In this document: piece after piece, positions 2,093 through 19,878 of the stretch
Layout of the letters: each line of letters begins with the position of its first letter
Position numbering within the stretch: position 1 is the first letter of the stretch
Source of the DNA: a phage
Reading direction: 5' to 3' (one strand)
DNA length: 64,000 nucleotides
Assembly: GCA_028030915.1 (NCBI GenBank)
Contig: GCA_028030915.1_4867.1
Position numbers and translations under genes: made by a program
Notes under the pieces: model-generated
Told to the model about the DNA's origin: nothing
Databases searched by the model: none
Seen by the model: only the letters and a program-made list of their open reading frames with translations

Positions 2093-2147
2093 AAGATATA
2101 GGTACCCTACTCCCGTTGGGAGTAGGGTTTACCTTTTATTTTTTTCG
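2093..2147. terminator. bidirectional rho-independent terminator
   Basis: hairpin ccctactcc-cgttg-ggagtaggg (2105..2127) flanked by an A-run upstream and a T-run downstream; lies between convergent genes 1866..2075 (+) and 2136..3398 (-). Confidence 0.55.
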
Positions 2148-3398
2148 TGCTTTGTAGCGATGCATTTCAACAAATGGCTTACCCCAAGCCCCGAAAGGCC
2201 CGACGATTGCCTGCACGTCGTTTACCAAATTCTGGTTATACCAACGCGCGTTCCCCAACAAAAAGTTTTCCCGGTCGAAGAATGTGGTATTAAAGACCCA
2301 CTCCCCTTCTTCCCAGGTCGGCCAGTACCCTACACATTTACCAACACGGTTAAAGATAGGACCTAGCGTCTTCTTCCCATCTGGGTCAGTCGGGTCTTTT
2401 AAATAGAACCGGCCCCAGATAGCGTTGTGGCTTATTCCGTGAATCTCTTTTTCGAGATACGGGTTGTCTATCGTAAAGATAAACGAGGATTCGTGCGTCA
2501 GCAACGCTTTTAACGTTTCTGAGTTACGAATACGTTGAACGGACGTAGGCGTACTTAAATCACCTACACCGATGGCGTCCCAATCGTAATAGCGACGGGT
2601 TTCCAATACAATCTTCGCCACGCTAAGGTTTGGCAGACTCAGCATAATCGCACGGTCGCTGAAATAGCCCTGCGGCGGCAACCAATGCAGAATACCTCCG
2701 ATGACGAACCCAACGGTTTTCCCTGTAATGGAATCGGGTAAGGTCAACATTAACGAAGAATAGTAATCTCGCGTAGTATCGAGTTTGTTCATCGTTAAAC
2801 CGGATATGGGGTAGGTCTTTACTTTACCGATATTTGCCATCACCAGACAGCCAATGTCTGGCGTATTGGCACGCCGCACGATATTACCAGCGCCGGTTAA
2901 GCGAACGCCCACTGGGTCAGATTGGTGAGGTACCCACTGGCCGTTGATGTTGTACAGCACCCCAGTACGGTATTTCTCTTTCCACTCATCGTCGCAGACT
3001 ACAACAACGTCGTGTGCATCATCAGGATTGAAGTCCTGAGTGTAGTGGTACCCAGGAGGGCACAGGTGCGTTTCCACGGGCACATCTGCATTAATAGACT
3101 GGTAATGTGCCTCAACGAATTCGAGCTTCGGTAGGCCCTTCCCAAGCGTTGGAATCGCGATTCCTGACTTGGTGTTTAACCAATCTTGCAACGTGTCCGT
3201 ACGGTTTTGTAAATCAGCCAGGTGATACTGGCTATAGAAGGTATATTCAGCACCTAGTGCTTCTAGTCCTACTTCGAAAAAGTGGTAGTTAGCACAAAGG
3301 GTATTTAAGGGCTGCGTGACATCGATGGTTCCCCAAGTTCGGGTGTCTCGAGAGAAGCCAAAAGCGCTGTCGGCCCGCACTTGATAAGCAGTAGTCAC
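2136..3398 (-). CDS. hypothetical protein (420 aa)
   Basis: long ORF, divergent from the tail-fibre operon; no family recognised. Confidence 0.6.
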   Translation of the reverse strand: MTTAYQVRADSAFGFSRDTRTWGTIDVTQPLNTLCANYHFFEVGLEALGAEYTFYSQYHLADLQNRTDTLQDWLNTKSGIAIPTLGKGLPKLEFVEAHYQSINADVPVETHLCPPGYHYTQDFNPDDAHDVVVVCDDEWKEKYRTGVLYNINGQWVPHQSDPVGVRLTGAGNIVRRANTPDIGCLVMANIGKVKTYPISGLTMNKLDTTRDYYSSLMLTLPDSITGKTVGFVIGGILHWLPPQGYFSDRAIMLSLPNLSVAKIVLETRRYYDWDAIGVGDLSTPTSVQRIRNSETLKALLTHESSFIFTIDNPYLEKEIHGISHNAIWGRFYLKDPTDPDGKKTLGPIFNRVGKCVGYWPTWEEGEWVFNTTFFDRENFLLGNARWYNQNLVNDVQAIVGPFGAWGKPFVEMHRYKARKK

Positions 3399-3465
3399 TG
3401 GCTGTTTCCTCTAAGGATTCGGGTCATAGTATGAACTCGACGCCCTCAGAGAAAAGGAGTGTAAA

Positions 3466-6400
3466 ATGGCTGTCGTCCCTGACCCGCACTATCAAGAACC
3501 GGGGAATATGCAGACCGGTGAAGCGGTAACGCCGATCGGTACTAAGTACCGGATGCTGTTCCCCGCACACGCCCCCTTTTATACCACATCCCTGGTGGTC
3601 AAGAGTGGCGGCAAGAAATTAACATTAGGTGATGATTACGTCATCACCCATGCGTACGTTACGGGCATGGCACGCACTGGCCATGTTTGTCATGGTGGTG
3701 TGTGGATTACCAACCCGAAATATCAGAGTGGCTTTACACTCGATTACCACGCAATTGGCATCGGTGAAGCCACCGCAGAAATGATCGCCGCAGAACGAGA
3801 AGCGAATAAAGATCGCTATCCCGTAGACTGCCAATGGGATAACGTTATTGGGGATTTATATTTCCCACCGGTCGATATTAAGTTCGATTGGGAAAACTGG
3901 CGTGGCGAATCCGAGTTGATGGAAGCCATTGTTGCGGTTGGTGCTAAGCTCGGTGAAGCGATCAGTCGTGTTGACCCGATTGCTCGTAACACGTTAGACC
4001 TTCAATATCGCGCCGGCGTCACGCTTATCACATCCGAGCAGTATGCGACGTACGACGGTACTGGCGGCTACACCTATAACGCGTCACGTCGTCGTTATTC
4101 GTTATCTTACCAGAACACGACATTCGATGCGTATTCGTTAGCGGCAAAATACCGTTTACCGAGCATTCCACCGGAAACAACGTTGAACCCAGGCGAGTTG
4201 ATCGATTGGATGCTCTGTTACGCAAACGGTGGGACAAGTATCCTGCGTCTTCAGTTGAAGCAACGCGCGATTTATCTTACCTTAACGACGGCGATTGGTT
4301 CTGGTTCGTCTAATTACAGCTATACGTTGACGACTGGCCTGACCGATACCGAGTTGGCGGGTGATATTGAGCTTAGCGTGGTCAGACGCGAAGGTAACGG
4401 CGTTTACGACATTACCGTTAAAACAAGCAAGCAAACCGTTAACTACAGCTTTAACGTTGACAACCCACCGAGCGAATTTGCACCAGGGTATCAGAAAACT
4501 GATGTCGCAAAATGGTTGAAGTTTAAATCGGGCGTCAACCTAAACTGGTGGGCAGGTGAGAACGATTACGTCCAGATTCGTTCATTACCAGGCGCACCGG
4601 CACCTGACGTTAACAACGACGTGTACCAGCTGCTGGTAAAATATCACCAGATTGTCGATAAGCTGTACCGTGATGCACCAGCACATACGCACGTGCCGCG
4701 CAAGGATAACCCACATCGCGATTCGTGGGGCGCAATCCGTGCTTTGGAGAATAACGGTATTGCTTCGGACGCGACACTGGTATACGGAAAAACGCAACCG
4801 CAGCTGACAGATTACGTTAACAATCTGTTGCCGAAACTGTCAACGCTGGCGAATAAGCTTTTACGTTTACCGGCGGCTGCACAGTCTATCAACGGCACTT
4901 TCGGTATGAAGCCTGGCCTGACTTCGATAACGTCAGCAGTGGGTACCGATGAGTCTGAAGGCGTGGGTGCACAATTCACGGTTGACCCGAGGGTTATCCG
5001 TTTTATTGGCCGCGATTCGCAAACCGTTAACGCCGGGAATAACCCGATTACATGGCAAGGTGGGGCTAACCAACTCATCCTTTATCCGGATTCCCGTGGA
5101 TTGGAGTTCAACGGTAAGAAACTATTGGACCCTACTACGGTCGGACCGTACCTGCCGGGTAACGAGTCAGGTGGTGATGGACTGTTTTACGGAACATCCA
5201 CAGCTACTGTAACCATTAACGGCAACGGTATTCAGTCTGTTCCGTTCATTTGTACTTTTGTTCCACCGGAGTCCGACGACCTTGGCCTGATGGCTGTCCG
5301 TTTGTTGGCTACTGAATTCGGTGATCGTGAGGACTTGGCCGCAACGCCGGCACTCATCAAGAAATTGGATCAGCAGTTTACGGGCAAGTTGGTTGCCGTT
5401 AAATCGTACATCAACGACATGCCACTGACGAGTTCTATTTACATCGATAAAACTAACTTCGGCTTATCGAACGTACAGAACATCCCAGATGTGCAATTGC
5501 CGATTTCCCCGCTCCAACGAGCTGAGCTGGACAAGTATGCAGTCGTCGGTCACACACACACTCCTGCTGCGCTCGGGATTAAGCGTGCAACAACGACGGA
5601 GTTCGGTTTAGTACAGTTCGGCACCGCGGTTGACGATGCCACGCTGGCATTAGACGGCGGTGAGGTCATCCGACAGGCGGACGCTATCACAGAGATAGAG
5701 AAGGTTGCGAAGACAGTCGACTCTGGTGCTTCAATCAACATTATTCGTTACGGTTTACCCGGCACGGATATCATTGAGAACGGCATCACTTACACCGACT
5801 GGATGGTTACTATTAAAGCGAACGATTATTTCGTTGGTCGCGAGTACAAAGTACCTCTCTCCACATTTAACTTGGCGGAGCTATTCCCAGCGACGCACGA
5901 AGATGCTGAGTTTGGCGTGTATGTTGACGCGGCGGGCGATGACGGCAAGTACATTATCTACGAAAATCCAAACACGGCAGAAACTGAGACGATGACCAAA
6001 ATAGGTTCCATCATCACCAGTGAAACCGGTGTGGTTTTTGTAGAAATCCGCAACGTGACGCGTTTAGGTGAGTTCCGTGAATTAGGCGAGCACATCGAGG
6101 ATGATAACGCCCATATTCGTCGGGGCATGACGCAAGCTGAATTCGGATTTACTTACGGTACGGGCGGGCCTGTGTGGTCCACGGGTGCACCGGGTACAAA
6201 ACGTATAGATGCCGATTGGCGTTACGCGCAGGCTAGCAGCTATACGCCTATGTTGAAAGCGGACTACGATCCGGCTGCTGATAAATGGACGTTTAAAACA
6301 ACCAGTTTATCTGTAACCGATTATCGTTTTGTCCACAACACATTCCCGATGTTCCAGAATAACGGCATTACCGCGACGTGGACACCTTTAACCGCAACAG

Positions 6401-7179
6401 CGGACAGTGTGCTAGAAACGGTAATTGGCTGTTGCCATCACTCGGCCACGTTCATGCACCGTATTTCTGTACTCGTCGCACGCACCGCAGGGCGTATTAC
6501 CACTCCAGGCGGCGTGAGCACGTATGCGGGAATCGCGGTTAACTACGGACGTGCTGCACAGGTTGTTATTGGCTTGAACGGCGTTACTGGTTCCGGCCAT
6601 GACTGGACGGCACTTAATCCATCGGTGCGTTTCAGCCACGCGCGAACAGCGGACGGTATTTCGTTCGTGGGAACGATTAACATCGATTCCAAAACGATTA
6701 ACTTTGAGCTGACGCTAACCGCGACAACAAAGACGCTGAAATACACCTTGCAGTCGACCGGCGAGTCGTGGACTGAGGATTTGTCTACCCGTCTCCGTCC
6801 TGACTATATCGACTTGACGAAACTGATTACCGATCCGAGTACGCCGATTTATCACGGCGTGGGTGGTTTGTTTAGTTCCGACACAGAAGCGCGTTTGACT
6901 TACGCTAACCTGAACACGATGCCGACAAAGAATCGTTATTACGCCACGTTCCTTGACTATGCGATTAACTATTCCGGCTTAAACCGCGCAAGATTCTTTA
7001 CTGGCGTGGTGGATGCAGGTTCAACGATTAATGAGATGAACAGCGCGATGTGCAACTATTCATACAGTTCGTTCCGACCAGTGGATACAGGTAAAATTCC
7101 ACCGGCGGCGCACCCATCCAAGATGATGACGTTCAATCCGAAAAACACGTCAGGTCGAACACTTATTATTCGTGATTAA
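3466..7179 (+). CDS. tail fibre protein (large, 1237 aa)
   Basis: aaggag SD; N-terminal region shared with the next three genes (PFY...DY...); tail-fibre-type repeat ATTTEFGLVQFGTAVDDATLA; HTHTPAALG His-x-His motif; Ser/Thr/Gly/Asn-rich fibrous composition. Confidence 0.7.
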   Translation: MAVVPDPHYQEPGNMQTGEAVTPIGTKYRMLFPAHAPFYTTSLVVKSGGKKLTLGDDYVITHAYVTGMARTGHVCHGGVWITNPKYQSGFTLDYHAIGIGEATAEMIAAEREANKDRYPVDCQWDNVIGDLYFPPVDIKFDWENWRGESELMEAIVAVGAKLGEAISRVDPIARNTLDLQYRAGVTLITSEQYATYDGTGGYTYNASRRRYSLSYQNTTFDAYSLAAKYRLPSIPPETTLNPGELIDWMLCYANGGTSILRLQLKQRAIYLTLTTAIGSGSSNYSYTLTTGLTDTELAGDIELSVVRREGNGVYDITVKTSKQTVNYSFNVDNPPSEFAPGYQKTDVAKWLKFKSGVNLNWWAGENDYVQIRSLPGAPAPDVNNDVYQLLVKYHQIVDKLYRDAPAHTHVPRKDNPHRDSWGAIRALENNGIASDATLVYGKTQPQLTDYVNNLLPKLSTLANKLLRLPAAAQSINGTFGMKPGLTSITSAVGTDESEGVGAQFTVDPRVIRFIGRDSQTVNAGNNPITWQGGANQLILYPDSRGLEFNGKKLLDPTTVGPYLPGNESGGDGLFYGTSTATVTINGNGIQSVPFICTFVPPESDDLGLMAVRLLATEFGDREDLAATPALIKKLDQQFTGKLVAVKSYINDMPLTSSIYIDKTNFGLSNVQNIPDVQLPISPLQRAELDKYAVVGHTHTPAALGIKRATTTEFGLVQFGTAVDDATLALDGGEVIRQADAITEIEKVAKTVDSGASINIIRYGLPGTDIIENGITYTDWMVTIKANDYFVGREYKVPLSTFNLAELFPATHEDAEFGVYVDAAGDDGKYIIYENPNTAETETMTKIGSIITSETGVVFVEIRNVTRLGEFRELGEHIEDDNAHIRRGMTQAEFGFTYGTGGPVWSTGAPGTKRIDADWRYAQASSYTPMLKADYDPAADKWTFKTTSLSVTDYRFVHNTFPMFQNNGITATWTPLTATADSVLETVIGCCHHSATFMHRISVLVARTAGRITTPGGVSTYAGIAVNYGRAAQVVIGLNGVTGSGHDWTALNPSVRFSHARTADGISFVGTINIDSKTINFELTLTATTKTLKYTLQSTGESWTEDLSTRLRPDYIDLTKLITDPSTPIYHGVGGLFSSDTEARLTYANLNTMPTKNRYYATFLDYAINYSGLNRARFFTGVVDAGSTINEMNSAMCNYSYSSFRPVDTGKIPPAAHPSKMMTFNPKNTSGRTLIIRD

Positions 7180-7191
7180 GGAGATTTTTGA

Positions 7192-10100
7192 ATGAAAACG
7201 TATCCTTACGATCCTCGGGGTGTAAATCCTGAGTGTCACTTCATCGAGGAACGTATCATCGACTCCGACAATCCTAACGATCGGGTGGTGATGCTAGATC
7301 ATCGCCCGTTTTTCGAAGGATTGGTGGTAAGGCTCGCCGGCTCGTCCATACCGCTTACCCGCGGGACGGACTATGAGCTGGAGTATGCTTTAACACCGTT
7401 GGACGACTCGGTGACGACCCCGGTGTTTTGCGGGGTGCATCTTATTAACCCTAAACTGCGTGGTGCGGTGGTCTTTGAAGGCCAGATGCTCGGGGGTACG
7501 TTTTACAGTGGTTTGATTGAGATGTTGGATGAGCTAATTAAGGCACTCAACAATCCAACGGCTGCAGATTGGCTGCTTTTAGGTAATCGACCTTCCCTGT
7601 ACCCAGCCACCCCTGCAGCGGTAGCTTGGTCAGACATGCTGAATAAAAAGTATGTTGCCTCTGCAGTGCATGATGTGGAGTTAGATGCCGGGGCGGCCAA
7701 CGAGCAGATTCGTGAAAAGCTTACTGAGCTGAAAGATGCGGTTTTGGGCTTAGGAACTGAAATCGCCACATTTAACTACCCCGGACACATTGCGTCGACT
7801 AACCCTCATGGGACTACCGCGGCGCAGGCCGGTGCGCATCCTGTCAACCTGAAAACGCCAGATACTTTCCTGGCGTATGGAAAGACGTTGCGTCAGTTAA
7901 CCAGCGAGGTCCGTGCACTGGGTCTGCAACAATCGGATATCGACAAGTACATTTCTAAATGGGTATCGAAAGAATCCAGAGGGGTGTTTAATGCGACGAT
8001 ATCCGGTACTCGTGCCCTGTTCCGTTCTCCTGCTGGTGAATCCGAAATTGTGTTCTCTGCTGAGGCATTCACTCTTAAATCTAATGGCTCTGTTGTGTTG
8101 GCGTGTGGGTATGCCGACACTACTGGAACCGTCCGGTTTATGGAGTGGAAAGCAGGCATCAATACATTACGTATTGAGTCGACTGGCAGTGCCTTGGGGA
8201 TGGATAAGCTGACGCTTAATGGTACGACGTTACTGACCACAACCGCTCTCATGGGCTATCAACAAGACCCTGGTACCGGCGGTGGTACCGTTGACCCGGA
8301 TGACAACAAACTGTACATTAGCGGGGTGAACGGCATTACTTTCACGGGTAAAGGGTCAAAAGCCGATCCTGTCACCGGGAAGGTCACAGCCAAACCCGCG
8401 ACGACCTCTGAACCAGGCGTTGTGACGCTGACTGATAAGCCGAGCGATGTAGTCAAAGGGCAAGCAGCCACCCCGTCGGCGCTTTTGCCGTATGAGGGCG
8501 ACCTGTCTTCGTACGTCAGGAAGACAACGCTGCTGAATAACCAGCCGATGAACACTGGTAGTCGAACGCTGACGAAAAAGGATTTGGGTTTAGACTTGGC
8601 TGATAACACAGCCGACGTCGATAAACCACTTTCTGACGCGTTGGCAGAAGCAGTTACCGGTCTTAGCGATAAAGGCCATCATCACAACTTCGCTGATTTA
8701 CAGATCCCAACGGCTTCTCAAACTGTGCCAGGCATCGCGCGATACTCTACCAACTTAAACGGCTTGGCGGATAATCGTGGCGTTACCCCGAACGTTCTGA
8801 ACGAATTGTCAAAACGTTTAGACGTGGTTGCAGCCGCGTTAGCAAACGCGAAAGAGGATTCCGTGGCCGACTTCGCCGCTGTGCGTGGTAAGACATGGAC
8901 TGTGGGGTCTACGCGTACTACCCTCGCTGTAACAGATTTGAACTATTTCTATCTGTTAAATGGTACACGTAAAGAGGGGACGGTATCCGGCTCGATAGAC
9001 CTGCAAACCACACCGATGTTCCAGTGGTTCTCTCCGGATAACCGTATGGAAAGAACGTGGCAAAACGCGGTAATTAATACCGGTGCCGGTATTGATTTTA
9101 GTGGGTTCGAGGTTGCTGTCCCGGAAACAAACTACGGTGCGCAGATTGGTTTAACGACAACCGGAATGGGTGATTTGTCAGTCGTTAACCTCTTGGCGAA
9201 AACGTGGGTTCGTTGCGACTCTGGTAAGCTGCGGATTTGGGTTCGTGGCGGTGGTGCTGTTTCTGTTTATCTGGACGGTGAAATTATCGGTGCGGGTATT
9301 ACAGAAGCGGGGTATCTGGAGGCGACTGTCAAAGAGGGGTGGAAGCAACACTGCTTAGCATTCCGTGCAGAATGTAACGATAGCGCTAAAGCAGCCGCAA
9401 TTCGTTTCACAATTTACGACGGTGACTTTGCGGTTGGGGCCTCGGATAAAAACACCAAAGTTGCCCGCCTGCAGGAGTTTGTTAAGACGCCGAACGGTTT
9501 AAGGCATTACCTCTATGTGAACATGATAACCGATGCGTTATATTCGCGCGCCGAACCTATTGTGGACACGGAAGGTATTAACTTGGAACGCGGCTATATC
9601 GGCCACATTGATGTCCCTGACGCGGGATTGGTTGCAGGCACGACTTACGAGTTTGAAACGACGTTTGATTTTGGCATGGCGTCCGAACTTAAACGGCACT
9701 TCGAAACACGTCTAGCACACGGGGTGAGTAACACCGACTGGTCGTTGACGGATAACCCGAAAATGCTGCCGTTGAATAAGGTTGATCCATTACCTAAACA
9801 ATGGCTGTATGCGTATCCAACTAACCCGTCTGTTTCTGGGGATAACCTCGTTCGTTTAGATCGTGGGTTATTTGATTATAAATTCGTAAGTGCCACCTCG
9901 CTCAGGATTCTTCTTGCGGCGGTTGTTTCCACTGAAAACGCGTCCCCGTATTGCTGGTTTACACCAAGCAACCCGAAAGAAAATGGAATGGCGACATTCG
10001 AGGGTTCGGTGGTAATCGACACTGATTATCCTGAAGTCCCAAAAACCTCGGACGTCGAAGTTTCATTAAACTTCATGGCCCCTTCTGCTGATGGGAAAGG

Positions 10101-11322
10101 TAAAACCAGAGTCCTGCGGTGGAGTAACTCCCGCACCAGTTTAAACTGCGGCTTTATTGCTGCGCCGTACGATAAACCAACCGGAAGAATTGCCACCACA
10201 CAATCCAGCGTTACTAATACGCTGGTTGATGCTCCTCGTGTAATCAAGAGCGTGGATGTTCAGTCGCCTGACTGTTTAGACTATCTCCCGGTTTCAATCG
10301 CTAGCGAGTTCGCAGCCATTGGTTCGCGCTGGCTTATTCGTTATCGCTATATTGTTGATACGCAGATACTGCGAATATCGTCGATTAGTAAGATAGGCGG
10401 CCAGGCTTCGGCGACTGTTCGTGAGATAGAGTACGACATTCCGTTTGACGCGATTGATTATTTTAAAGGCGGCGCTTTATCGATTAGTGTTACTGGCATC
10501 GAAACTGGTGAAGGCGTCACAATCAACCACGGTTTGATGGACCCTTCCACAACAGAAGTAGATTTAAATCGTTTCCATTATCTACGCTCGCTATTTGAGT
10601 CGTATATTGAGCGTTCTCCGGACAGCCAGTCTTCTGGGCATGAGGAGATGTCGATATCAACCGTCGCGTTCGCGAACTTTGGAGATAACGTCGATAACCC
10701 GGTTACGGAATACATCACGATGTCTGCTGCAAGTGAGGGTTATCCGGAACTTGCACCGAACGGTAAACTCCCCGCACCGTTTTACAAAGGGCTGCAGAAA
10801 CGTGGTGCTCCGCTACTTGAGTCGGCTCCTGCAGACTATACGTCTAACGGTGGTGAATGGAAGTACGGCTTTATGCGGGCTTATCGCCCAACTCAAAATG
10901 AGCGTTTTGTGTCGGTAAATGGGACAATGCTCTCTAACTACCCAGGATATATCATCGTGGGTAGTGAGAAAATTCCGGGTAATGTTATACCTTTCAGTGC
11001 ATCGACAACAGCTGTTCAGATATCTGGGACTCTTGCCCGCACGAAACCGATGCAGCCAATTCACATCGTGTTCGTGCCTCCGGAAGGTTCTGTGCCGCCG
11101 CTGCAAGCGAAGTTCACTATTAATGGCGTGGGCAGTAGTGGTAATCCGATGTTCGTGATTACTGAAACGACACCGGTGGAACTTCGCACTGGTGGCGAGA
11201 CGATTCTCATTGAGAAGCGTAATCCATTCCATATCCCCACCAGGACATGGGATTGGATTTTACAAACGTTGGATACTGAACGTAGAAACGAAGGCAACAA
11301 CTCGGGTGAGTGGGCCTCTTAG
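7192..11322 (+). CDS. tail fibre protein (large, 1376 aa)
   Basis: taaggag SD, 12 nt after the previous stop; N-terminal RGTDYELEYA region shared with the 16649 gene; fibre repeats KPATTSEPGVVTLTD and GIARYSTNLNGLADNRGVTPNVLNEL. Confidence 0.7.
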   Translation: MKTYPYDPRGVNPECHFIEERIIDSDNPNDRVVMLDHRPFFEGLVVRLAGSSIPLTRGTDYELEYALTPLDDSVTTPVFCGVHLINPKLRGAVVFEGQMLGGTFYSGLIEMLDELIKALNNPTAADWLLLGNRPSLYPATPAAVAWSDMLNKKYVASAVHDVELDAGAANEQIREKLTELKDAVLGLGTEIATFNYPGHIASTNPHGTTAAQAGAHPVNLKTPDTFLAYGKTLRQLTSEVRALGLQQSDIDKYISKWVSKESRGVFNATISGTRALFRSPAGESEIVFSAEAFTLKSNGSVVLACGYADTTGTVRFMEWKAGINTLRIESTGSALGMDKLTLNGTTLLTTTALMGYQQDPGTGGGTVDPDDNKLYISGVNGITFTGKGSKADPVTGKVTAKPATTSEPGVVTLTDKPSDVVKGQAATPSALLPYEGDLSSYVRKTTLLNNQPMNTGSRTLTKKDLGLDLADNTADVDKPLSDALAEAVTGLSDKGHHHNFADLQIPTASQTVPGIARYSTNLNGLADNRGVTPNVLNELSKRLDVVAAALANAKEDSVADFAAVRGKTWTVGSTRTTLAVTDLNYFYLLNGTRKEGTVSGSIDLQTTPMFQWFSPDNRMERTWQNAVINTGAGIDFSGFEVAVPETNYGAQIGLTTTGMGDLSVVNLLAKTWVRCDSGKLRIWVRGGGAVSVYLDGEIIGAGITEAGYLEATVKEGWKQHCLAFRAECNDSAKAAAIRFTIYDGDFAVGASDKNTKVARLQEFVKTPNGLRHYLYVNMITDALYSRAEPIVDTEGINLERGYIGHIDVPDAGLVAGTTYEFETTFDFGMASELKRHFETRLAHGVSNTDWSLTDNPKMLPLNKVDPLPKQWLYAYPTNPSVSGDNLVRLDRGLFDYKFVSATSLRILLAAVVSTENASPYCWFTPSNPKENGMATFEGSVVIDTDYPEVPKTSDVEVSLNFMAPSADGKGKTRVLRWSNSRTSLNCGFIAAPYDKPTGRIATTQSSVTNTLVDAPRVIKSVDVQSPDCLDYLPVSIASEFAAIGSRWLIRYRYIVDTQILRISSISKIGGQASATVREIEYDIPFDAIDYFKGGALSISVTGIETGEGVTINHGLMDPSTTEVDLNRFHYLRSLFESYIERSPDSQSSGHEEMSISTVAFANFGDNVDNPVTEYITMSAASEGYPELAPNGKLPAPFYKGLQKRGAPLLESAPADYTSNGGEWKYGFMRAYRPTQNERFVSVNGTMLSNYPGYIIVGSEKIPGNVIPFSASTTAVQISGTLARTKPMQPIHIVFVPPEGSVPPLQAKFTINGVGSSGNPMFVITETTPVELRTGGETILIEKRNPFHIPTRTWDWILQTLDTERRNEGNNSGEWAS

Positions 11323-11356
11323 GACGGACTGCCTACGGGCGGGTAGTCCGTAGGTA

Positions 11357-11397
11357 AACCGCCCTTCCGTTATTGGGAGGGCGGTCTCCGTTTTATT
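11357..11397 (+). terminator. hairpin with short T-run between fibre genes (attenuator or weak terminator)
   Basis: accgccct-loop-agggcggt stem followed by ctccgttttatt; a second GC-rich stem at 11324..11354. Confidence 0.35.
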
Positions 11398-11417
11398 ACA
11401 GATTAGGAGTGTTTGCA

Positions 11418-14400
11418 ATGCCGAGAGAAGATGCGGCGCAGTTTAACGGTACCCTCAGTACCGCTACTTACCCGAACCGTTATTCGACGGTCATTCCCGT
11501 CGAAGCACCGTTCTATCGCATCGGGTTAACGTTAACCGTTACCGATAAAGCAACCGGAACCAAACGCAAGTTAATAGAAGGTCTTGATTATTTCTTAGGA
11601 CATTACTTCCAGGAATTAGCCGAGGCTGAGAACGATGCAATATACGGCAGCATAATGCTGCTGAACGCCACAGAGGTAGAATACGAGTTGTTGTCGGTTG
11701 GTCGACAGTATCGCATCCCTGCTTCTGAAATCGGCAAGTATCTGGTTAAGACGGATATGAAAGACCCGCGCAACTGCGATTGGTCTGAGCTGATGAAATA
11801 TCCACCGATTATCTCGCCAATCGACCCGCCAAAAGATCTCGAAGAAGCGATTCTTCGCGATGAAATCGTAAAGGCGTTGGAAGATATCCGTCTGGGTATT
11901 TTAGAGCGCGCCCACGAACTGGATGAGGCATTTGCCGAAGTTACCGATTTGATTTATCAGAACGGTAAGCAGGTGTTTGATGACGAAATGTATCAACACC
12001 ACCTGATTAAAAATGCACATGGTTACACCTGCGGTGACATTGGCGCACTCCCTGTGCTCGGTAAGGCCGTAGATGCGACTAAGGCATTCGGACGTACCCT
12101 GGCAGAGCTAGTGACGTTAATGTCTACCAGTGGCATCCAACAGAAACACGTTGACCTGCTTCTGGATAATACCCTGGGTGATTTACTGGGCCGTATGCGT
12201 GTTCTGAATAACGACGCGATTACGTTCCAAACAACGTCTGGTCACGTTATCAGCATGAAAGGTGAGAAGTTCATCATCACCTCGACAAAACCGCTGGTAT
12301 TAAAAGCTGACCAGGATAACAACGAACCGGGTATCGCTACGGAGTTCAGTGCTGGTCTGAACACGCTTTGGGTTCACTCGGGTAAAGCAGGTGACAAGTG
12401 GGGCGCTTATGATGCAGGTGTGCTTGCACCTGTGTATAACAGCGTGTATCTCGTTACACCGGATATGGTTAAGATGTACTTGACCTCGGTGAAGATACTT
12501 CCAGCAAACGCCTACTTCAAGTCCAGCGACACGTTGAAGATTTACGGCTCTGGTAAAGAAACAAACAAAGTTTACATGAATGCGGAGCTGCCTGCAGCAA
12601 CCACAACTGTGCAGGGTTTGTTTGCGATTACTAACCTCTCGGCATCCGCTGCAGCGTCCACAGCGATTTCCCAAAAAGCTGTTACTGACTTGAAGAACAA
12701 ACTCGACGGATATGTGGACGACACGTATACGGTCAATGGTAAAGGGTTTGTATTAGATTCAAACGGGCAGATGCATCTGACCTTAACCGCGGCAGATTTC
12801 GGTATTGAGAAAATGGACAATACCGGACCGTTAGAAAAGCCTGTTACTAACGCATTGCGTACCGTGCTATCAGGCAAAGCGTTTACATCGCACACCCACA
12901 CCATTGCAGATCTCGATAACGTGCCGTACGCATCCACGTCTGTTACAGGTTTGGCTAAACTGTGGGATGCAATCGACACTACCTCGGATAAGATGGTCAC
13001 TTCGCGCCAAGGCTTCTTGCTTGAACAGAAGATTGACACGCTGAATGACAAGATTGGTACGTTATTACCGGCGTGGACTGTCGGCGGATCATCGTACGGC
13101 AACAATAACTTCTTGCCTATACCAGTCCAGGGGAACTACGAAGGGTATACCAAAAACCAAACCTGGCAGAAAGGTTTGGCGCGTTACGAGTCTGGTAAGG
13201 TTTACTCGCTCCGTAATGGTTCTAACGGGAATCCACCTGGTGACTGGGCTATCTATTACGCTTACGCAGATGTAGCCGCGGATAACACGCTGACGAACAT
13301 GCAGCAGACGTCCGTACGTTACCGCCCCGCTGGAATGTCGGCGTATCCTGGGGTGAATCTGGTTGCTATTGTGATTACCGGTACAGATGCAATGATCTGC
13401 TTAGGCAGTGACGGTGCGTATTACCTGGTCATCTTTGACGGCACCATTGACCATGCAAAACATCATCGTGTTGTTAAAGTTCAGTTGGGCGATTACCGAA
13501 ATGGTAACGCGGCCGGTGTGATTACAACCGCTCCATGGGTTGCCGATCCATCAACAAACGATTTGATCGTTTGCAACGAGCGGGTTTATCTGCTCCGTAC
13601 TGTCCTTACCTCCGGTGACTATTTCGTGAGTATGCGTAGCATCGCACTTGACGAACTTAATCTGGGTGGTAGCAACACGTTTGTGGCGGATGTGTTAACA
13701 GGCGGGATGTTAACGTCGGGAGATAATATCTATTTGCGTCAGGGTCAGAAACGTTCTGATACAGATGTGTTGGTAGCGCCAGTAACACAAATCTACGCAG
13801 ACGCATCGGCGAAGTGGAATAGTGCGCGAAATTTCGTCCATGGTCCGGAATGTAATCACGCGATTGGTGTGGATGGGCTGAACTTTCGTGTTGGTTTAAC
13901 TCCAACGGTTTGGTTTGCTTCTACTACAGGGCAAACTATTAACTTTAAACAATGGGTGTCAAGCTTTGTTGTTGATTGTAGTTCAATGACGATAACGCTG
14001 GAAGGTGCTGATCGATTCCCTATTGTGGCCGATCTTACCACGGTTCGTTATAACGGTGGTGCTGAGATTGGGATTCCGAGCCGGAAATGGGGCGAAGGTC
14101 AAGCTAATAACCGAACCTTTGCAACATCGCAAGACAAGTATATCGTTTCGCAAGGACATGCAGGCGATCGCGACCTGATGCCTTACGTCACGATTACCAC
14201 GTTAGATGACGGTGTGAGTTGGTACGAGTACCTGTCGTGCGACTACAACTTCACTGCCAGAAGTTTTAGTGCGGTAATGTTAAACCAAGGTCGTGGTTCT
14301 ATCTACGAGCTGGGTATGGCGTATCCGCTGACTCTGGGAGCGAATTCCAGACTTATCTGGTTGTCACAGCCGCGTACCCGTTTGGCAATTGAAGTTGAGT

Positions 14401-16601
14401 TTGATCCGAACACCACTTACTCAGGTAAGGCGGGGTACGGCCCAACTAACAATCGTCGTGTGGTGGATTCTACCACGTACGAGAATCTGTCGCAGATGTG
14501 CCACATTGTTACACCGGCGTCGCCTGGTACAGAGTTAAACGGCTGGTATTGCACAGGACCAGAAACATTCCCTTACCACAACGTTTCTGGCACTTTCACG
14601 ATTCATGCCGATCGGTTGACGCTGTCACAAGCTGAATGGGATAAGATGAAGCAGATGATCATCGACGGAGCACCGGCAGGCGCTGCGAATGGTTATGCTT
14701 CGGAATTTATCCTTGCCGCAAATAACGCAGGAAAGGCATTGTTCTCCGTTTGGTTCATCGGCATTGGTACGGCCACACCGCTCACGTTAGCACAAGTAGC
14801 ATGTACGCGTACTGTGAACAACGTTAACGTGTTGGATATCTACTACTTTACACTGAAACCAACAATCAGCAACGGGCAGGTAACATTCCCGGCAGCGATA
14901 TTGGCATTGTTTGACTTCTATAACAACCTCGACTATGGCTTGAACTATGCTACGTTGGGTGAGATAACGGGAGGAAAAACACGCCGGCCGGGACAACCTA
15001 CACTGGTGTCAGTAGATGGTACTCAGTTCGGGTTGTATCTTCCACACACGTTAACCTTGCGCCAAATTGGCGACTTGGGTGCGCTTAACTACGGCGTTGG
15101 TCTTACGCTGTCTAATGGTACCTGGACGCGTTCTTCTGCTCCACACGGCATTGGACGCATGGCACCATCACACACTCCAGTCAGCCCAGCTTATCTGGCT
15201 CATCGTGATCAGGTGATGCTACACAACTCATCTCTCGACTACGTCTATTGTGGTGGTATCGCAATGTCGTCGAGTGATTTTGTCGCGGCTCCTAATTTTA
15301 GTGGCCCGACTGAATCGGTCGTCATTGCTGGTGTGGAAACAGCCGAAGGTTGGCTGGTATATGTGACTGAGGAAGTTGACCTGCGTTTCGGCTCGAGCAC
15401 TTATAAACTGCCTACGTGGTATATTGACCTCAGCGCAGCATTTCCAACAAACCATCAGAACCGGACATTCTACCTGCACGCCAAGGTAGAAAATGGTACA
15501 CCGAAGTACGTAATGGACGTGATTCAACATCCAGACACTGAAACGGAACTCTATATCGGGTATGTTAAAACGGGCTCGTCGCGAGTCGTCGAGACTAACG
15601 TCGAACATGCTAAGCGATTAGGGGCGGTGAAACAACTGTTGGAACATGCGGCGGTTGAGAATAAGCATGATGTGGAGGTGGGAAGGGATGCAGCAACGGG
15701 CAGACTGGCACCATTGCGTAAAGAAGCGATGGGTCCTTTGTCGATCGATGCTACGAAAGGCTATCTGGATAGTCAGTTGCTTTATACCGTATCTGACGCA
15801 CAGCGTCGCGGTAAAGCGATGGTCTCCAAACGTTTCGAAGGCTTGAAAACTTTGCCGGCGTTTACTCAGGCAAACAAGTCGGGGGCGTTTTGGAAACATC
15901 CTACAACAATTGCGACGGTAACGGCCGATGAGAACGGTGAAGCGGCATCGTTGGGAATGGAGTGGGTAGGTATTCCAACGCCCGCTTTCTCACCGACCTC
16001 AACGAACTTGATGGTGGTGGTGCAAAGTAAATTCGTCGTCCCAGGTACACCGGGAGTAGAAACGACCTTTAATGTCCACGTTGCCCCATGGGAGGCGGTG
16101 GATGGCTTTTTCTACAACGTCGAGGCGGAAGGTACGGATGTTAACATTGACGAAAATCCAGAAGTGTTATTGCCGTCACCACATACCGTGCACCACAAAC
16201 AGCACTCTCTGCCAGCAGGCGTGCCGTGCACCTTTACATTTGTCGCGGCGGTAAGTTCTTCAGCGCTCGAAACAGCCAACCAGCATATTTGCTCTTGGCT
16301 TTTCACGGAAGCGGGGGGACTACCAATCACCACCGATCTTTCGGATAGTAAGATTCAAATCTTACCACAGCCGGGAGAAACCTATGGCACTCCAGTTGTT
16401 CTGAACAGTCGTAGCTATACGTTTACGAATGTGGCAGGTGCAATCCCGGTTGTTACCACGGGCGCTCAGGGTTTATTCCCACCACCGATCGTGGCGTGGG
16501 ATGGCGATGATCTTACGTTAACGATTGCGCACGATTGGGTGAACGAGAGAGGACGTCAGCAGCCTGATATTATCCAGGTCAATCTTATGTTCCGTACCTA
16601 A
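11418..16601 (+). CDS. tail fibre protein (large, about 1727 aa from refined start)
   Basis: start refined to ATG 11418 (taggag SD) because the listed upstream start lies inside the hairpin; fibre repeats ATTTVQGLFAITNLSASAAAS and SVTGLAKLWDAIDTTSDKMVTSRQGF; HTHTIADLD motif. Confidence 0.7.
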   Translation: MPREDAAQFNGTLSTATYPNRYSTVIPVEAPFYRIGLTLTVTDKATGTKRKLIEGLDYFLGHYFQELAEAENDAIYGSIMLLNATEVEYELLSVGRQYRIPASEIGKYLVKTDMKDPRNCDWSELMKYPPIISPIDPPKDLEEAILRDEIVKALEDIRLGILERAHELDEAFAEVTDLIYQNGKQVFDDEMYQHHLIKNAHGYTCGDIGALPVLGKAVDATKAFGRTLAELVTLMSTSGIQQKHVDLLLDNTLGDLLGRMRVLNNDAITFQTTSGHVISMKGEKFIITSTKPLVLKADQDNNEPGIATEFSAGLNTLWVHSGKAGDKWGAYDAGVLAPVYNSVYLVTPDMVKMYLTSVKILPANAYFKSSDTLKIYGSGKETNKVYMNAELPAATTTVQGLFAITNLSASAAASTAISQKAVTDLKNKLDGYVDDTYTVNGKGFVLDSNGQMHLTLTAADFGIEKMDNTGPLEKPVTNALRTVLSGKAFTSHTHTIADLDNVPYASTSVTGLAKLWDAIDTTSDKMVTSRQGFLLEQKIDTLNDKIGTLLPAWTVGGSSYGNNNFLPIPVQGNYEGYTKNQTWQKGLARYESGKVYSLRNGSNGNPPGDWAIYYAYADVAADNTLTNMQQTSVRYRPAGMSAYPGVNLVAIVITGTDAMICLGSDGAYYLVIFDGTIDHAKHHRVVKVQLGDYRNGNAAGVITTAPWVADPSTNDLIVCNERVYLLRTVLTSGDYFVSMRSIALDELNLGGSNTFVADVLTGGMLTSGDNIYLRQGQKRSDTDVLVAPVTQIYADASAKWNSARNFVHGPECNHAIGVDGLNFRVGLTPTVWFASTTGQTINFKQWVSSFVVDCSSMTITLEGADRFPIVADLTTVRYNGGAEIGIPSRKWGEGQANNRTFATSQDKYIVSQGHAGDRDLMPYVTITTLDDGVSWYEYLSCDYNFTARSFSAVMLNQGRGSIYELGMAYPLTLGANSRLIWLSQPRTRLAIEVEFDPNTTYSGKAGYGPTNNRRVVDSTTYENLSQMCHIVTPASPGTELNGWYCTGPETFPYHNVSGTFTIHADRLTLSQAEWDKMKQMIIDGAPAGAANGYASEFILAANNAGKALFSVWFIGIGTATPLTLAQVACTRTVNNVNVLDIYYFTLKPTISNGQVTFPAAILALFDFYNNLDYGLNYATLGEITGGKTRRPGQPTLVSVDGTQFGLYLPHTLTLRQIGDLGALNYGVGLTLSNGTWTRSSAPHGIGRMAPSHTPVSPAYLAHRDQVMLHNSSLDYVYCGGIAMSSSDFVAAPNFSGPTESVVIAGVETAEGWLVYVTEEVDLRFGSSTYKLPTWYIDLSAAFPTNHQNRTFYLHAKVENGTPKYVMDVIQHPDTETELYIGYVKTGSSRVVETNVEHAKRLGAVKQLLEHAAVENKHDVEVGRDAATGRLAPLRKEAMGPLSIDATKGYLDSQLLYTVSDAQRRGKAMVSKRFEGLKTLPAFTQANKSGAFWKHPTTIATVTADENGEAASLGMEWVGIPTPAFSPTSTNLMVVVQSKFVVPGTPGVETTFNVHVAPWEAVDGFFYNVEAEGTDVNIDENPEVLLPSPHTVHHKQHSLPAGVPCTFTFVAAVSSSALETANQHICSWLFTEAGGLPITTDLSDSKIQILPQPGETYGTPVVLNSRSYTFTNVAGAIPVVTTGAQGLFPPPIVAWDGDDLTLTIAHDWVNERGRQQPDIIQVNLMFRT

Positions 16602-16648
16602 CAGATAGCGCTATGGGGCAAGGAAGCCCCAATCAAAGGAGTTTGGCA

Positions 16649-17851
16649 ATGGCCGAAATCATTCATCAGTACCCGCTCGACCTTACCGGGACATTAACGT
16701 CGAACGCCGTTACACGGCGTATTACGTTAGGTTCTGGTAAAGTTAACCGGGCTTTTGCATTTCCTGACGGAGCTTTCTACGCGGATACCTTCCGCTTGGC
16801 AGCTGCGAATAAACCAGGTGTCTACCCGTACAAACGCGGCACAGACTACGAACTGATTTTTGCACATACTGCATATCAGAAAATGACCAAGAACCGCGAA
16901 GTGGTCATGGGTGTGGTGGTAACTAACTCGGCCATTCCTACTGATATCGAGGTCTCTGCGCAAGTCGTTGGTGGTTTTCAGTCTGCGAACGTCGAAGGCA
17001 TCCGACAAGCGATTGCGTCGTTGAAAATTGAAGACCGCGTGGTGGACTTCAAGGATCTTCGAAACGTACCCGATACGTTCCCGTCCGCCCCGACGTATAA
17101 AGACCTTGGCGATATCTACGGTTTTGAGTATATCATTACCGTACTCGCGGGGATTAAAGATGCGATTAACTCCGGCTCTGCAGTACAGCTGGAAGAAATT
17201 AAAGGTATTCTGGATGGTCTGAAAAACGACTTCCTCGACGCCTTAAATACCCACATCAACGCCGAAGGTAACGTACACAATCTCGACATTCATCAGGTTA
17301 ATGGCCTGACGGAGACGGAGATTCGTGCCCTGATTCAAAGTGTACAGACTGCCATTGACGCCACTATCAGAGATATCGGCGACTTAAGAGCAGCAGACAC
17401 GGCATTGGGGCAACGCATCGATGCAATTGTGGCTTCGTTAGCCGCGTGGAACGACCAGCTTAACGTGGTTGCTCAAAATTACCAGAAAATGTCGTTAGCA
17501 TTAGCTAACCTTAATTCTCTGGTGTTGCAATTACAGAAGATGGTTAACGATCTTCAGTCTGCACTGAATGAAACAAATCAGCGTGTCACGGATCTTGAGA
17601 ATCAGGGCAAAGACTTCCAACAGCAAATTGATAACCTGCAAGGACAAATCAACAGTCTTAAAACTCAGGTTGTAAACAACACCAACGCAATTTCGCAGGC
17701 AAACCAGAATCTGGCGAACCATGCGGCTGCGGATAACCCACACCCGAATTACCTCCATAAACAGTATGGCGGTGTTGTGCAGGCTGCTGTTCACGTCAAC
17801 AACAACCTCACCTCGCGCGACGATGTTCAAGCTGAAGCGGGTACTAAGTAA
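16649..17851 (+). CDS. tail fibre-associated coiled-coil protein (about 400 aa)
   Basis: start refined to ATG 16649 (aaggag SD); N-terminal KRGTDYELIFAHTAY region shared with the fibre genes; long heptad-like segment LQLQKMVNDLQSALNETNQRVTDLENQGKDFQQQIDNLQGQINSLKTQ. Confidence 0.6.
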   Translation: MAEIIHQYPLDLTGTLTSNAVTRRITLGSGKVNRAFAFPDGAFYADTFRLAAANKPGVYPYKRGTDYELIFAHTAYQKMTKNREVVMGVVVTNSAIPTDIEVSAQVVGGFQSANVEGIRQAIASLKIEDRVVDFKDLRNVPDTFPSAPTYKDLGDIYGFEYIITVLAGIKDAINSGSAVQLEEIKGILDGLKNDFLDALNTHINAEGNVHNLDIHQVNGLTETEIRALIQSVQTAIDATIRDIGDLRAADTALGQRIDAIVASLAAWNDQLNVVAQNYQKMSLALANLNSLVLQLQKMVNDLQSALNETNQRVTDLENQGKDFQQQIDNLQGQINSLKTQVVNNTNAISQANQNLANHAAADNPHPNYLHKQYGGVVQAAVHVNNNLTSRDDVQAEAGTK

Positions 17852-17860
17852 CTTGTTTAC

Positions 17861-17906
17861 GAGCCGGACTATGTTTATGGACATAGTCCGCTCGTTCTAC
17901 TTTTTA
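17861..17906 (+). terminator. hairpin plus T-run after the fibre operon (terminator/attenuator)
   Basis: gagccggactatgt-ttatgg-acatagtccgctc (14-bp stem, one bulge) followed by gttctactttttaagg, just before the first Cys-rich gene. Confidence 0.45.
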
Positions 17907-17916
17907 AGGAAGCGTA

Positions 17917-18309
17917 ATGGCGATATCTATTAAAGACGTCAGAAACCGCGTCCAGATAGTCGAAGCTAACATGGCGACAGGCCCCCGCATCGAGGCGCAA
18001 GTGGCCTCTAAAGCCCATAATGCGGCAGACCGATTTGGGGGTTGGACGAAAGCACAGCTAGATTGCGGCGGGACATGTTCTTGGACATGCTCTAACGGTT
18101 GCTCGCACGGCTGTTCGAGCTGTTCAGGAAGCTGTTCTGCTTCTTGTATCGGTAGCTGTTCTTCGACGTGTGGCGGTAACTGTTCTGGTTGCTCTGGTTG
18201 TTCTGGTGGTTGCAGTAGTAGCTGTACCGGTAACTGCACAGGTGGTTGCGGTGGCTCATGTTCTTCCAGTTGTTCCGGGGCCTGCTCCGGCGGCTGTTCA
18301 GGTCGCTAA
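17917..18309 (+). CDS. Cys/Ser/Gly-rich peptide 1, putative radical-SAM substrate (RiPP-precursor-like), 130 aa
   Basis: aaggaag SD; about 49-aa leader-like N-terminus (MAISIKDVRNRVQIVEAN...) then a core with 21 Cys at mostly CxxxC spacing; paralog of the next two ORFs. Confidence 0.7.
   Translation: MAISIKDVRNRVQIVEANMATGPRIEAQVASKAHNAADRFGGWTKAQLDCGGTCSWTCSNGCSHGCSSCSGSCSASCIGSCSSTCGGNCSGCSGCSGGCSSSCTGNCTGGCGGSCSSSCSGACSGGCSGR
18064..18306 (+). repeat. low-complexity coding repeat (about 12-nt period, TGY-TCN-GGN pattern) in the peptide-1 core
   Basis: reiterated ggttgctctggt / agctgttct units visible in the sequence; generates spurious overlapping ORFs on both strands. Confidence 0.6.
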
Positions 18310-18319
18310 GGGGGATTAA

Positions 18320-18724
18320 ATGGCAATTGGATTAAAAGAACTGAATAACCGATTAAACACGATCGATGCAAACGCTCTAAAGAATACCACGAATGTGCAA
18401 AACTACATTCGCAATAAAGCTACGAATAACGCTGACTTGTTCGCAGGTCAAGGTCGTTCGCACTACGACTGTGGTGGTACGTGTTCTTTTAGCTGCTCAA
18501 GTTGCTCTGGCGGCTGCACAGGATCTGCGACAGGTGGTTGTGGGTCGACTTGTTCGGCAAACTGTGTATCAGGCTGTAGCAGCAGCTGCACGGGCTGTAG
18601 CTCTTCGTGCTCTGGTGGTTGTAGCGGCACGTGCACAGGCAGCTGTTCTGGGGGTTGTGGTAAATCCTGCTCCGCAAACTGCTCAGGTGCGTGCTCTGGT
18701 GGTTGTTCAGGTCCTAACTCCTAA
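18320..18724 (+). CDS. Cys/Ser/Gly-rich peptide 2, putative radical-SAM substrate, 134 aa
   Basis: 10 nt after peptide 1, aggggga SD; leader MAIGLKELNNRLNTIDAN...HYDCGG; core with 20 Cys. Confidence 0.7.
   Translation: MAIGLKELNNRLNTIDANALKNTTNVQNYIRNKATNNADLFAGQGRSHYDCGGTCSFSCSSCSGGCTGSATGGCGSTCSANCVSGCSSSCTGCSSSCSGGCSGTCTGSCSGGCGKSCSANCSGACSGGCSGPNS
18470..18721 (+). repeat. low-complexity coding repeat (about 12-nt period) in the peptide-2 core
   Basis: same TGY-TCN-GGN periodicity as the peptide-1 core. Confidence 0.6.
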
Positions 18725-18739
18725 CTGACGGAGGCTTAT

Positions 18740-19856: not shown

Positions 19857-19878
19857 AAATATACTGGAGCAACCTGCA

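Follow-up and report, generated by a model that had tools for sequence, protein, structure and literature searches.

A probable late operon for the baseplate-attached fibres of an SPN3US-like jumbo phage: four paralogous genes with a gp131-like anchor module

Four consecutive genes on the plus strand of a 64,000-nucleotide (nt) stretch of phage DNA (GenBank assembly GCA_028030915.1, contig GCA_028030915.1_4867.1; hereafter "the window") most probably form a late operon that encodes the set of fibres attached to the baseplate in an SPN3US-like (Seoulvirus) jumbo phage. The 14.4-kb region occupied by these genes is 96–98% identical at the nt level to Salmonella phage SPN3US and about 30 Seoulvirus relatives, with jumbo phages of Erwinia and Cronobacter as more remote relatives; judged by these identities, the window is that of a Seoulvirus, i.e. 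an SPN3US-like jumbo phage. The whole cluster shares 96.4% nt and 95–99% amino acid (aa) identity with its counterpart in SPN3US, where the order and lengths of the genes and the spacers between them are the same. The locus is already known, as a published SPN3US gene set homologous to the fibre complex of phiKZ, and its core identification has no new consequences, this being a near-identical copy of the SPN3US cluster, whose phiKZ counterpart has already been visualised. What we add is modest: the recognition of gp167 as a fourth member of the family, two sets of conserved histidines (an invariant in-register histidine-x-histidine [HxH] motif and the "NPH" pair) and, at the nucleic acid level, a conserved three-way junction, a TATG palindrome and hairpins with TATG in their loops.

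A preliminary description of the region, made from the sequence alone, had listed plus-strand genes of 1237, 1376, 1727 and 400 aa, and open reading frames (ORFs) matching RefSeq SPN3US are present for all of them. Gene 1 (ORF 3466–7179, 1237 aa) is the orthologue of SPN3US gp170 (135 kDa), gene 2 (ORF 7192–11322, 1376 aa) of gp169 (149 kDa), gene 3 (11418–16601 from its ATG, 1727 aa) of gp168 (188 kDa), and gene 4 (16649–17851 from its ATG, 400 aa) of gp167 (44.8 kDa). The full ORFs of the last two are slightly longer (11373–16601 with a TTG start for gene 3, and 16613–17851 for gene 4), and an AGGAG-type ribosome-binding site precedes the ATG of all four genes. Coordinates and lengths agree one-to-one with the coding sequences of RefSeq SPN3US, the gp numbers being assigned by mass and order.

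All four proteins begin with a domain of about 180 aa; the common N-terminal region proposed in the preliminary description is therefore real, and it goes beyond chance. At a pairwise identity of only about 20%, the four N-termini all match PHROG family 2163 (E-values 3.8e-14, 8e-23, 4.7e-85 and 1.5e-108), and the PF[YF] ... G.DY motif aligns across them. A profile made of the four N-domains of the window and the gene 4 orthologues found no further match among the ORFs of the window; in phiKZ it identified gp135 (109 bits), gp131 (97 bits), gp134 (88 bits) and gp133 (56 bits), with no match to gp145, gp146, gp157 or gp164. Pairwise blastp of the four proteins against phiKZ gp131, gp133, gp134 and gp135 gave E-values of 1e-13 to 9e-7, with gp131 as the best partner of genes 1–3 and gp135 (61.6 bits) as that of gene 4. 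The N-domain family is large, as 3823 representative clusters match it, always N-terminally, in proteins of 166–1560 aa. Structure prediction of the shared domain, which had been suggested as a check, was done with AlphaFold 2 for genes 3 and 4 and yielded a beta domain followed by a helix in both cases. In the model of residues 1–230 of the gene 3 protein, the residue blocks within 21–100 reach predicted local distance difference test values of 85–94 and the helix spans residues 142–186; in the gene 4 protein the same domain is followed by about 200 residues of helix, including helices 151–204. Foldseek comparison with BFVD returned 53 matches at E ≤ 0.001, mostly virion or fibre proteins of jumbo phages, several per phage, with proteins of the phiKZ relative PA7 among them. 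Each of the four proteins begins with a gp131-like anchor module, i.e. a beta domain of about 100 aa and then a long helix. In the PDB copies searched we found no solved structure significantly similar to the N-domain: the profile picked up only a short W..L.N.P..F.P..H repeat in entry 9d93 ("tail collar fibers gp4"), and Foldseek of the gene 4 model retrieved nothing at E ≤ 0.001. The families matched by the profile searches are tail or virion-structural ones, and a tape-measure or capsid-decoration identity, considered at the outset as the contrary outcome, is rejected by the PHROG and phiKZ profile matches.

The genomic context agrees with this assignment. A homologue of SPN3US gp171 and phiKZ gp130 (2136–3398, minus strand; blastp to phiKZ gp130 66.6 bits over 400 aa) lies next to the fibre genes in divergent orientation, so that the phiKZ order of gp130 followed by gp131–135 is kept as a minus-strand gp130 homologue followed by tandem plus-strand paralogues. 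Another gene, at 726–1658, matches phiKZ gp164, the central spike. The N-domain, the long helix and the synteny of a gp131-like paralogue family are thus all found at this locus. SPN3US gp171 corresponds to phiKZ ORF130 and is essential and tail-associated (PMC5105663 Table 4), and in phiKZ the fibre-attachment sites sit beneath gp130 (Structural atlas of phiKZ, Nat Commun 2026, PMC13250141); by analogy, the gp130 homologue is the likely dock of the fibres. In SPN3US, gp167–170 have all been detected in virions by mass spectrometry, in a table that gives them no "Head" label; gp168–170 were described as "paralog family C", baseplate or tail-fibre candidates with similarity to phiKZ gp131, and they are missing from a tailless mutant, gp168 being "expected essential" (PMC5694885, PMC5105663). 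On homology, synteny and this published proteomics, the four proteins are tail-associated virion proteins. The idea that they are fibre or baseplate proteins carried by a common N-terminal anchor is borne out by the PHROG and phiKZ homology together with the gp130 synteny, and a composite apparatus is the expected architecture.

Beyond the anchor, the proteins of genes 1–3 have a collinear shaft of about 380 aa, in which the order of motifs is identical and their spacing nearly so. HxH motifs are located at residues 407 and 696 in gene 1, at 496 in gene 2 and at 492 in gene 3, with none in gene 4; their counts (2, 1, 1 and 0, versus 0.43, 0.29, 0.88 and 0.2 predicted from the histidine content) are at chance level. 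Their position, however, exceeds chance, since in each large protein one HxH is in register in the collinear shaft alignment. Neither histidine of this motif varies among 11 orthologues, which extend to a Vibrio phage; the codons of the motif lie on the plus strand at 5551–5559 in gene 1 (H696-T-H698), 8677–8685 in gene 2 and 12891–12899 in gene 3. Directly after the long helix, all four proteins have another conserved pair of histidines, H-x6/7-[NA]-x-H (the "NPH" motif; H409/H417 in gene 1, H199/H206 in gene 2, H194/H201 in gene 3 and H202/H210 in gene 4); it is invariant or nearly so in orthologues and occurs in three copies in the distant homologue P0053. The single in-register HxH is plausible as a metal site, and one such motif per chain in a three-chain shaft could provide a site of six histidines. 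In the tip of T4 gp37, HxH motifs coordinate metal (iron) on the three-fold axis, and the preliminary description was reminded of T4 tips by the HTHT motifs of the present proteins. What remains of that comparison is one conserved in-register HxH per large protein, in the proximal to middle shaft, and not a gp37-like tip with multiple HxH motifs.

The fibre repeats reported for these proteins hold in a relaxed form only. The exact A-T-T-x-x-x-G pattern has no literal match, whereas the relaxed pattern [AS][ST]x4G[LIV]xx[LFY] is present at residue 708 of gene 1, residues 403 and 508 of gene 2 and residue 505 of gene 3, and one more fibre-type motif (PAATTTVQGLF, in the alignment row that begins with residue 326) is found in gene 3. 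A segment of gene 1 scored 17.3 bits with Phage_fiber_2 (PF03406), under the Pfam cut-off of 22, and a segment of gene 3 scored 21.2 bits with PTR (PF12789), under the cut-off of 27. With whole proteins, Pfam returned nothing for genes 1–3 and only sub-threshold coiled-coil families, which we regard as noise, for gene 4. A tblastn search with the stretch that carries the HxH and A-S-T-x4-G motifs matched minor tail proteins of actinophages.

Profiles of identity against ten relatives reveal conserved N-terminal and divergent C-terminal parts in genes 1–3, as is usual where a conserved anchor bears variable modules for host contact, and the divergent C-terminal parts presumably touch the host surface. 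Gene 4 is the most conserved of the four, with 80–88% identity where genes 1–3 have 44–60%. In terms of domains, the gene 1 protein consists of the anchor (aa 2–179), a variable insertion (approximately aa 150–400), the shaft with HxH at 696–698 and a variable C-terminal part. The gene 2 protein comprises the anchor (aa 2–183), the shaft, which extends to about aa 560 with HxH at 496–498, and a C-terminal part that is variable past about aa 950. In gene 3, the anchor (aa 19–178) with the long helix (aa 142–186) and the shaft (HxH at 492–494) are followed by a large middle body, a domain shared with gene 1 (aa 1282–1417 in gene 3, aa 740–883 in gene 1) and a hypervariable C-terminus (approximately aa 1450–1700), while gene 4 is composed of the anchor (aa 1–190), a continuous helix of about 200 aa and a conserved C-terminal segment of 40 aa. 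The insertion of gene 1 (aa 150–400, window positions 3913–4665) places some 220–250 aa between anchor and shaft; its identity in relatives is 0–30%, and it is absent from the proteins of Caitlin (1021 aa) and pSal-SNUABM-04 (1011 aa). Searching the PDB with the four protein sequences found nothing except coiled-coil noise for gene 4. The comparison with T4 gp34/gp37 and other fibre structures that had been proposed earlier did not produce a match either: profiles of genes 1–3 made from 11 orthologues matched no solved structure in the PDB, the T4 entries being covered if they are in that PDB copy. A homologue search with aa 1270–1727 of gene 3 found a single frameshifted fragment, and among the matches listed in the search with gene 1 there were only proteins of 98–100% identity. 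Neither Pfam searches of the four proteins nor PDB profiles of genes 1–3 brought out a known receptor-binding or enzymatic domain.

In phiKZ, the base of the fibre has been described as a hetero-hexamer of six gp131-like N-domains with a six-helix bundle, docked under gp130, with 12 fibres in total (PMC13250141). By analogy to this cryo-electron microscopy model, each fibre of the present phage would have a base of six N-domains and a six-helix bundle beneath the gp130 homologue. The likeliest composition of this base would be one copy each of gp168, gp169 and gp170 plus a trimer of the coiled-coil protein gp167, and 12 such fibres would be docked on gp171, the gp130 homologue, of each baseplate. 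Spectral counts per kDa (SC/M) in SPN3US are 1.00 for gp170, 1.41 for gp169, 1.08 for gp168 and 1.90 for gp167, those of gp168–170 (1.0–1.4) being near the value of the 12-copy portal (0.93); such counts are semi-quantitative only, and the stoichiometry rests on them and on the analogy.

The region of 67 nt between the divergent gp130 homologue and gene 1 contains an imperfect palindrome, GTCATAGTATGAA (3423–3435), with TATG on both strands (the G at 3433 on the plus strand and at 3425 on the minus strand). The palindrome GGTCATAGTATGAAC is unique in the window and conserved in 10 relatives of five genera, with the version GGTCATAATATGACC in Derbicusvirus, and its TATG at 3430–3433 lies 33 nt upstream of the gene 1 ATG. 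TATG, with the G as +1, is the consensus of late promoters used by the non-virion RNA polymerase of phiKZ (PMC4666361); it is only a 4-mer, present at -45 to -25 in 7 of 34 upstream regions. We propose that the palindrome probably represents back-to-back late promoters for the fibre operon and the gp130 homologue, of which the former would drive genes 1–4. Host-type promoters were also considered and rejected: matches to sigma-70-type promoters between window positions 2000 and 20000 are fewer than chance (7 vs 19.9 ± 3.8 in shuffles), a depletion consistent with a phage that uses its own RNA polymerases, independently of that of the host.

Hairpins after genes 2 and 4 had been noticed in the preliminary description, and folding finds both of them at those places (z -7.5 and -4.9, respectively). 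The first is part of a larger structure, as the gene 2–3 spacer (11320–11397, plus strand) folds into a three-way junction with a minimum free energy of -50 kcal/mol. Its outer stem (11320–11328 paired with 11387–11395) joins the stop-codon region to the T-run; hairpin 1 (11330–11356), also revealed by folding, had been overlooked, and hairpin 2 (11358–11385), with 12 pairs, has a C-rich arm, a TTAT loop and a G-rich arm and is followed by CTCCGTTTTATT. Seoul-, Erskine-, Machina- and Wellingtonvirus share the junction, and each of its three helices shows compensatory changes (5 of 23 pairs in total). Hairpin 2 displays the sequence features of phiKZ-type terminators, for which the motif BCCYCCCCHWWDGGGRRGGBYTTATKYYGT has been published (PMC10914365): positions 11359–11384 read CCGCCCTTCC gttatt GGGAGGGCGG and are followed by TCTCCGTTTTATT. 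The class to which it belongs (C-rich arm, short loop, G-rich arm, T-rich tail) has 16 members in the window versus 1.2 in shuffles; this count comes from a strict class search with shuffles, used instead of a permissive hairpin scan (G-T pairs and one mismatch allowed), which was dominated by noise. Members of the class are found at 2104–2128, 23307–23332, 24520–24544, 26722–26745, 48186–48209, 60707–60732 and elsewhere, for example as ACCCTACTCC-loop-GGAGTAGGGT followed by TTTAT; several read alike on both strands, and several are located at the ends of predicted ORFs or annotated genes. We regard hairpin 2 as a candidate leaky terminator that resembles those of phiKZ. The gene 2–3 spacer element is absent from Derbicusvirus, in which genes 2 and 3 are separated by 3–4 nt. 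Members of this genus (Cronobacter phage CR5, Erwinia phage Phobos) possess a larger terminator-like hairpin, GTGGGGAGC ttcg GCTCCCCAC, in the gene 3–4 spacer, which means that the position of the intra-operon stem-loop shifts between genera. In the window, the gene 3–4 spacer contains another overlooked hairpin (16615–16630, plus strand; GGGGC AAGGAA GCCCC) without a T-run, whose stem covaries in relatives (GGGGC/GCCCC, GGGACA/TGTCCC, GGAACA/TGTTCC, GAGAC/GTCTC). A TATG directly before this hairpin was considered as a promoter and rejected, as it is not conserved in relatives.

The hairpin after gene 4 (17859–17906, plus strand) has arms at 17859–17875 and 17880–17895 and the loop TATG at 17876–17879, followed by TCTACTTTTT; directly 3' of it come the ribosome-binding site of the next gene and its ATG (17917). 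The hairpin is found in 10 of 10 relatives, among which the stem takes at least five different sequences, and the loop TATG is always kept, 27–41 nt upstream of the next ATG. This result was obtained by folding each sequence separately, since RNAalifold on a MAFFT alignment, in which the arms are out of register, reported no structure. The hairpin is a candidate terminator and may contain a late promoter as well: it would end the transcription unit of genes 1–4 and probably also provide a TATG start for the genes of the Cys-rich peptide and radical-SAM enzymes that follow. A second hairpin with TATG in its loop is located at 56794–56819 on the minus strand (GCTACCACAC gatcaTATG TGTGGTAGC, then a T8 run), with TATG on the 3' side of the loop; it lies 41 nt upstream of another tail operon, and its sequence is conserved in Seoulvirus and Erskinevirus. 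The gene 2–3 spacer contains no TATG, hence genes 3 and 4 probably depend on read-through, and the terminator-like hairpin in the junction after gene 2 would have to be partly read through. It had also been suggested that attenuation at the hairpins sets the stoichiometry of the fibres. The hairpins are real and their structure is under selection, but this part of the preliminary description is unsupported, although such an effect is conceivable at the level of expression: no TATG is present in the gene 2–3 spacer, the abundance of the proteins in SPN3US virions does not fall along the operon, and Derbicusvirus lacks the spacer altogether. The gene 2–3 element would function as a leaky terminator, in RNA processing or stability, or in both ways. 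In the literature searched we found no transcript maps or 3' ends for the Seoulvirus group.

Several observations weigh against the reading of the region as a late operon for a fibre set assembled as in phiKZ. The SPN3US baseplate is without a structure, the phiKZ fibre model consists of AlphaFold models docked into maps of 4.4–4.6 Å, and all transcription signals described above are deduced from sequence and from data on the phiKZ group. The paralogue sets are not one-to-one (771 aa and three proteins of about 460 aa in phiKZ, vs three of 1237–1727 aa and one of 400 aa here), and with genes 1–3 closest to gp131 and gene 4 closest to gp135, the phiKZ stoichiometry is not simply transferable. 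The SC/M of gp167 is 1.3–1.9 times that of the others, not three times. Finally, Seoulviruses of E. coli and Salmonella keep the cluster at 94–96% nt identity, while in the same phages a separate tail module at about 52–56.8 kb retains only about 49% aa identity; the fibre cluster may therefore not be where host range differs within the genus. This module is on the minus strand and is annotated as virion structural, tail fiber and tail proteins. The 49% refers to its first protein (56235–56765, minus strand) in E. coli phages Lh1B and EC001 and Salmonella phage JN03, the genomes in which the four-gene cluster is kept, and the module may be a host-range cassette within the genus. A less probable but serious alternative to the composite fibre is that the paralogues assemble separately, each into a homotrimeric fibre or spike. 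Three or four different, independent receptor-binding fibres would then stand side by side on the baseplate as a truly multivalent apparatus, as in multi-tailspike phages, and would share the N-domain only as a common plug for equivalent sockets. Homotrimers are the default for phage fibres, and each of genes 1–3 has a divergent C-terminal part of its own, both of which speak for this possibility. So does the presence of two non-equivalent docking sites per star lobe in phiKZ, but the phiKZ density comprises six N-domains and a six-helix bundle per fibre and has been read as a mix of paralogues (PMC13250141). Moreover, the shafts of genes 1–3 are collinear and equal in length with their motifs in register, as co-assembly predicts, and SC/M values of about 1.0–1.4 fit 12 copies of each protein better than the 18 or 36 of six or twelve homotrimers. 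It is quite improbable that the giant proteins serve mainly as structural components of the peripheral baseplate (a scaffold or the star lobes) and not as host-binding fibres, the receptor being recognised by the module at about 52–56.8 kb. The contrast in conservation between cluster and module in phages of E. coli and Salmonella would be explained in this way, the peripheral baseplates of phiKZ and Goslar are largely without assigned proteins, and no receptor-binding or enzymatic domain was detected. Yet the giant proteins carry fibre-type motifs (HxH, A-S/T-x4-G, AATP, NPH) and are linked by tblastn to minor tail and tail fibre proteins, their gradient from a conserved N-terminus to a variable C-terminus is typical of receptor-binding fibres, and the homologous phiKZ proteins have themselves been modelled as fibres.

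With respect to the transcription signals of the proposed late operon, we give some, though limited, credence to the explanation that the intergenic stem-loops do not terminate at all and act as RNase III/E processing or stability elements, 3'-end protectors or translational operators, with incidental T-runs. The outer stem of the three-way junction, which ties up the T-run, is superfluous for a simple terminator, hairpin 1 is kept in sequence as well as in structure, and the gene 3–4 hairpin covaries despite having no T-run; strong termination would also starve genes 3 and 4, given the lack of TATG between genes 2 and 3. On the other hand, hairpin 2 is one of a class with many more members in the window than in shuffles, several of them at gene ends and some readable on both strands (e.g. 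2104–2128), and this class resembles the motif at mapped transcript 3' ends of phiKZ and 201phi2-1. A bolder idea, which we think unlikely, is that the hairpins after gene 4 and at 56794–56819 (minus strand) are dual elements that act as terminators in the RNA and as promoters in the DNA. The inverted repeat, as DNA, would present TATG at the tip of a stem-loop that is easy to melt or extrude, and the TATG/TATG palindrome upstream of gene 1 would follow the same principle in a bidirectional manner. If true, TATG in a hairpin could supply the "missing" specificity of the phiKZ-type non-virion RNA polymerases, for which TATG is the only known sequence determinant. Separately, and with equally low expectations, the three giant paralogues may build a shaft that is truly heterotrimeric and has a single metal site of six histidines.

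Downstream of gene 4, three tandem paralogous small ORFs (17917–18309, 18320–18724 and 18740–18946) share a leader-like N-terminus and have C-terminal parts rich in Cys, Ser and Gly (CSGSCS...); they are followed at 18969–22114 by a protein of 295 aa and two radical-SAM enzymes. Judged from these sequence features, the small ORFs and radical-SAM genes look like a phage-borne peptide-modification cluster. In RefSeq SPN3US the first small ORF is unannotated, and the stretch of the second is annotated in another frame (18393–18728). Rfam at gathering thresholds gave no match in the window, and a tRNA search of the window found none. Gene 1 is also present at 98–100% identity in well over 100 assemblies of Salmonella enterica and E. 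coli, on contigs that are typically some 240 kb long, which indicates that the whole phage genome travels with the isolates, either in a carrier state or as contamination. In the SPFM phage records LR5359xx (SPFM5-7, 10, 12, 14, 15 and 20) the fibre genes match only as 4–8 broken pieces; these records carry cut-off fibre "proteins", suggestive of frameshift-rich assemblies.

The papers on SPN3US count three members of the paralogue family, to which gp167 is added here on the basis of the same N-domain, and they contain no description of the RNA structures in the spacers or of the TATG palindrome. For SPN3US, a giant phage that is genetically tractable and for which amber mutants exist, our analysis offers a concrete model that can be tested, and it supplies candidate late promoters and terminators, at the sequence level, for Seoulvirus and its relatives. 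As in phiKZ gp131, gp133, gp134 and gp135, a homologous N-domain is followed by a helix, and the paralogues stand in a row beside a divergent gp130 homologue; both clusters also contain a terminator-like hairpin, which in phiKZ is located after gp132. Unlike in phiKZ, there is no equivalent of gp132, the proteins have 1237, 1376, 1727 and 400 aa as opposed to 771 aa and three times about 460 aa, and we found no sequence similarity to the propeller of seven blades at the C-terminus of gp131 proper (best blastp to its C-terminal half, E 0.12). The terminators mapped by Oxford Nanopore Technologies (ONT)-cappable-seq in phiKZ and 201phi2-1 have the same C-rich 5' arm, short loop, G-rich 3' arm and TTAT or T-rich tail (PMC10914365, PMC11512511), but the gene 2–3 hairpin differs from those of phiKZ in being enclosed in a three-way junction and in having TCTCCG between the stem and the T-run. 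The long tail fibre of T4 (gp34–gp37) resembles the present system in that long fibres are encoded by consecutive late genes. It differs in that the T4 fibre proteins join end to end, whereas the paralogues described here share an N-terminal anchor and start at the same place; in contrast to gp37, they have one conserved HxH per chain, at aa 492–698 of 1237–1727 aa, and no distal-tip series of HxH, and neither a gp37-type HxH tip nor a Pfam fibre-repeat family above threshold was found in them. In phages with multiple tailspikes or branched fibres, such as those of the CBA120/G7C type, PhiK64-1 and RaK2, several receptor-binding proteins are likewise attached by dedicated N-terminal adaptor domains.

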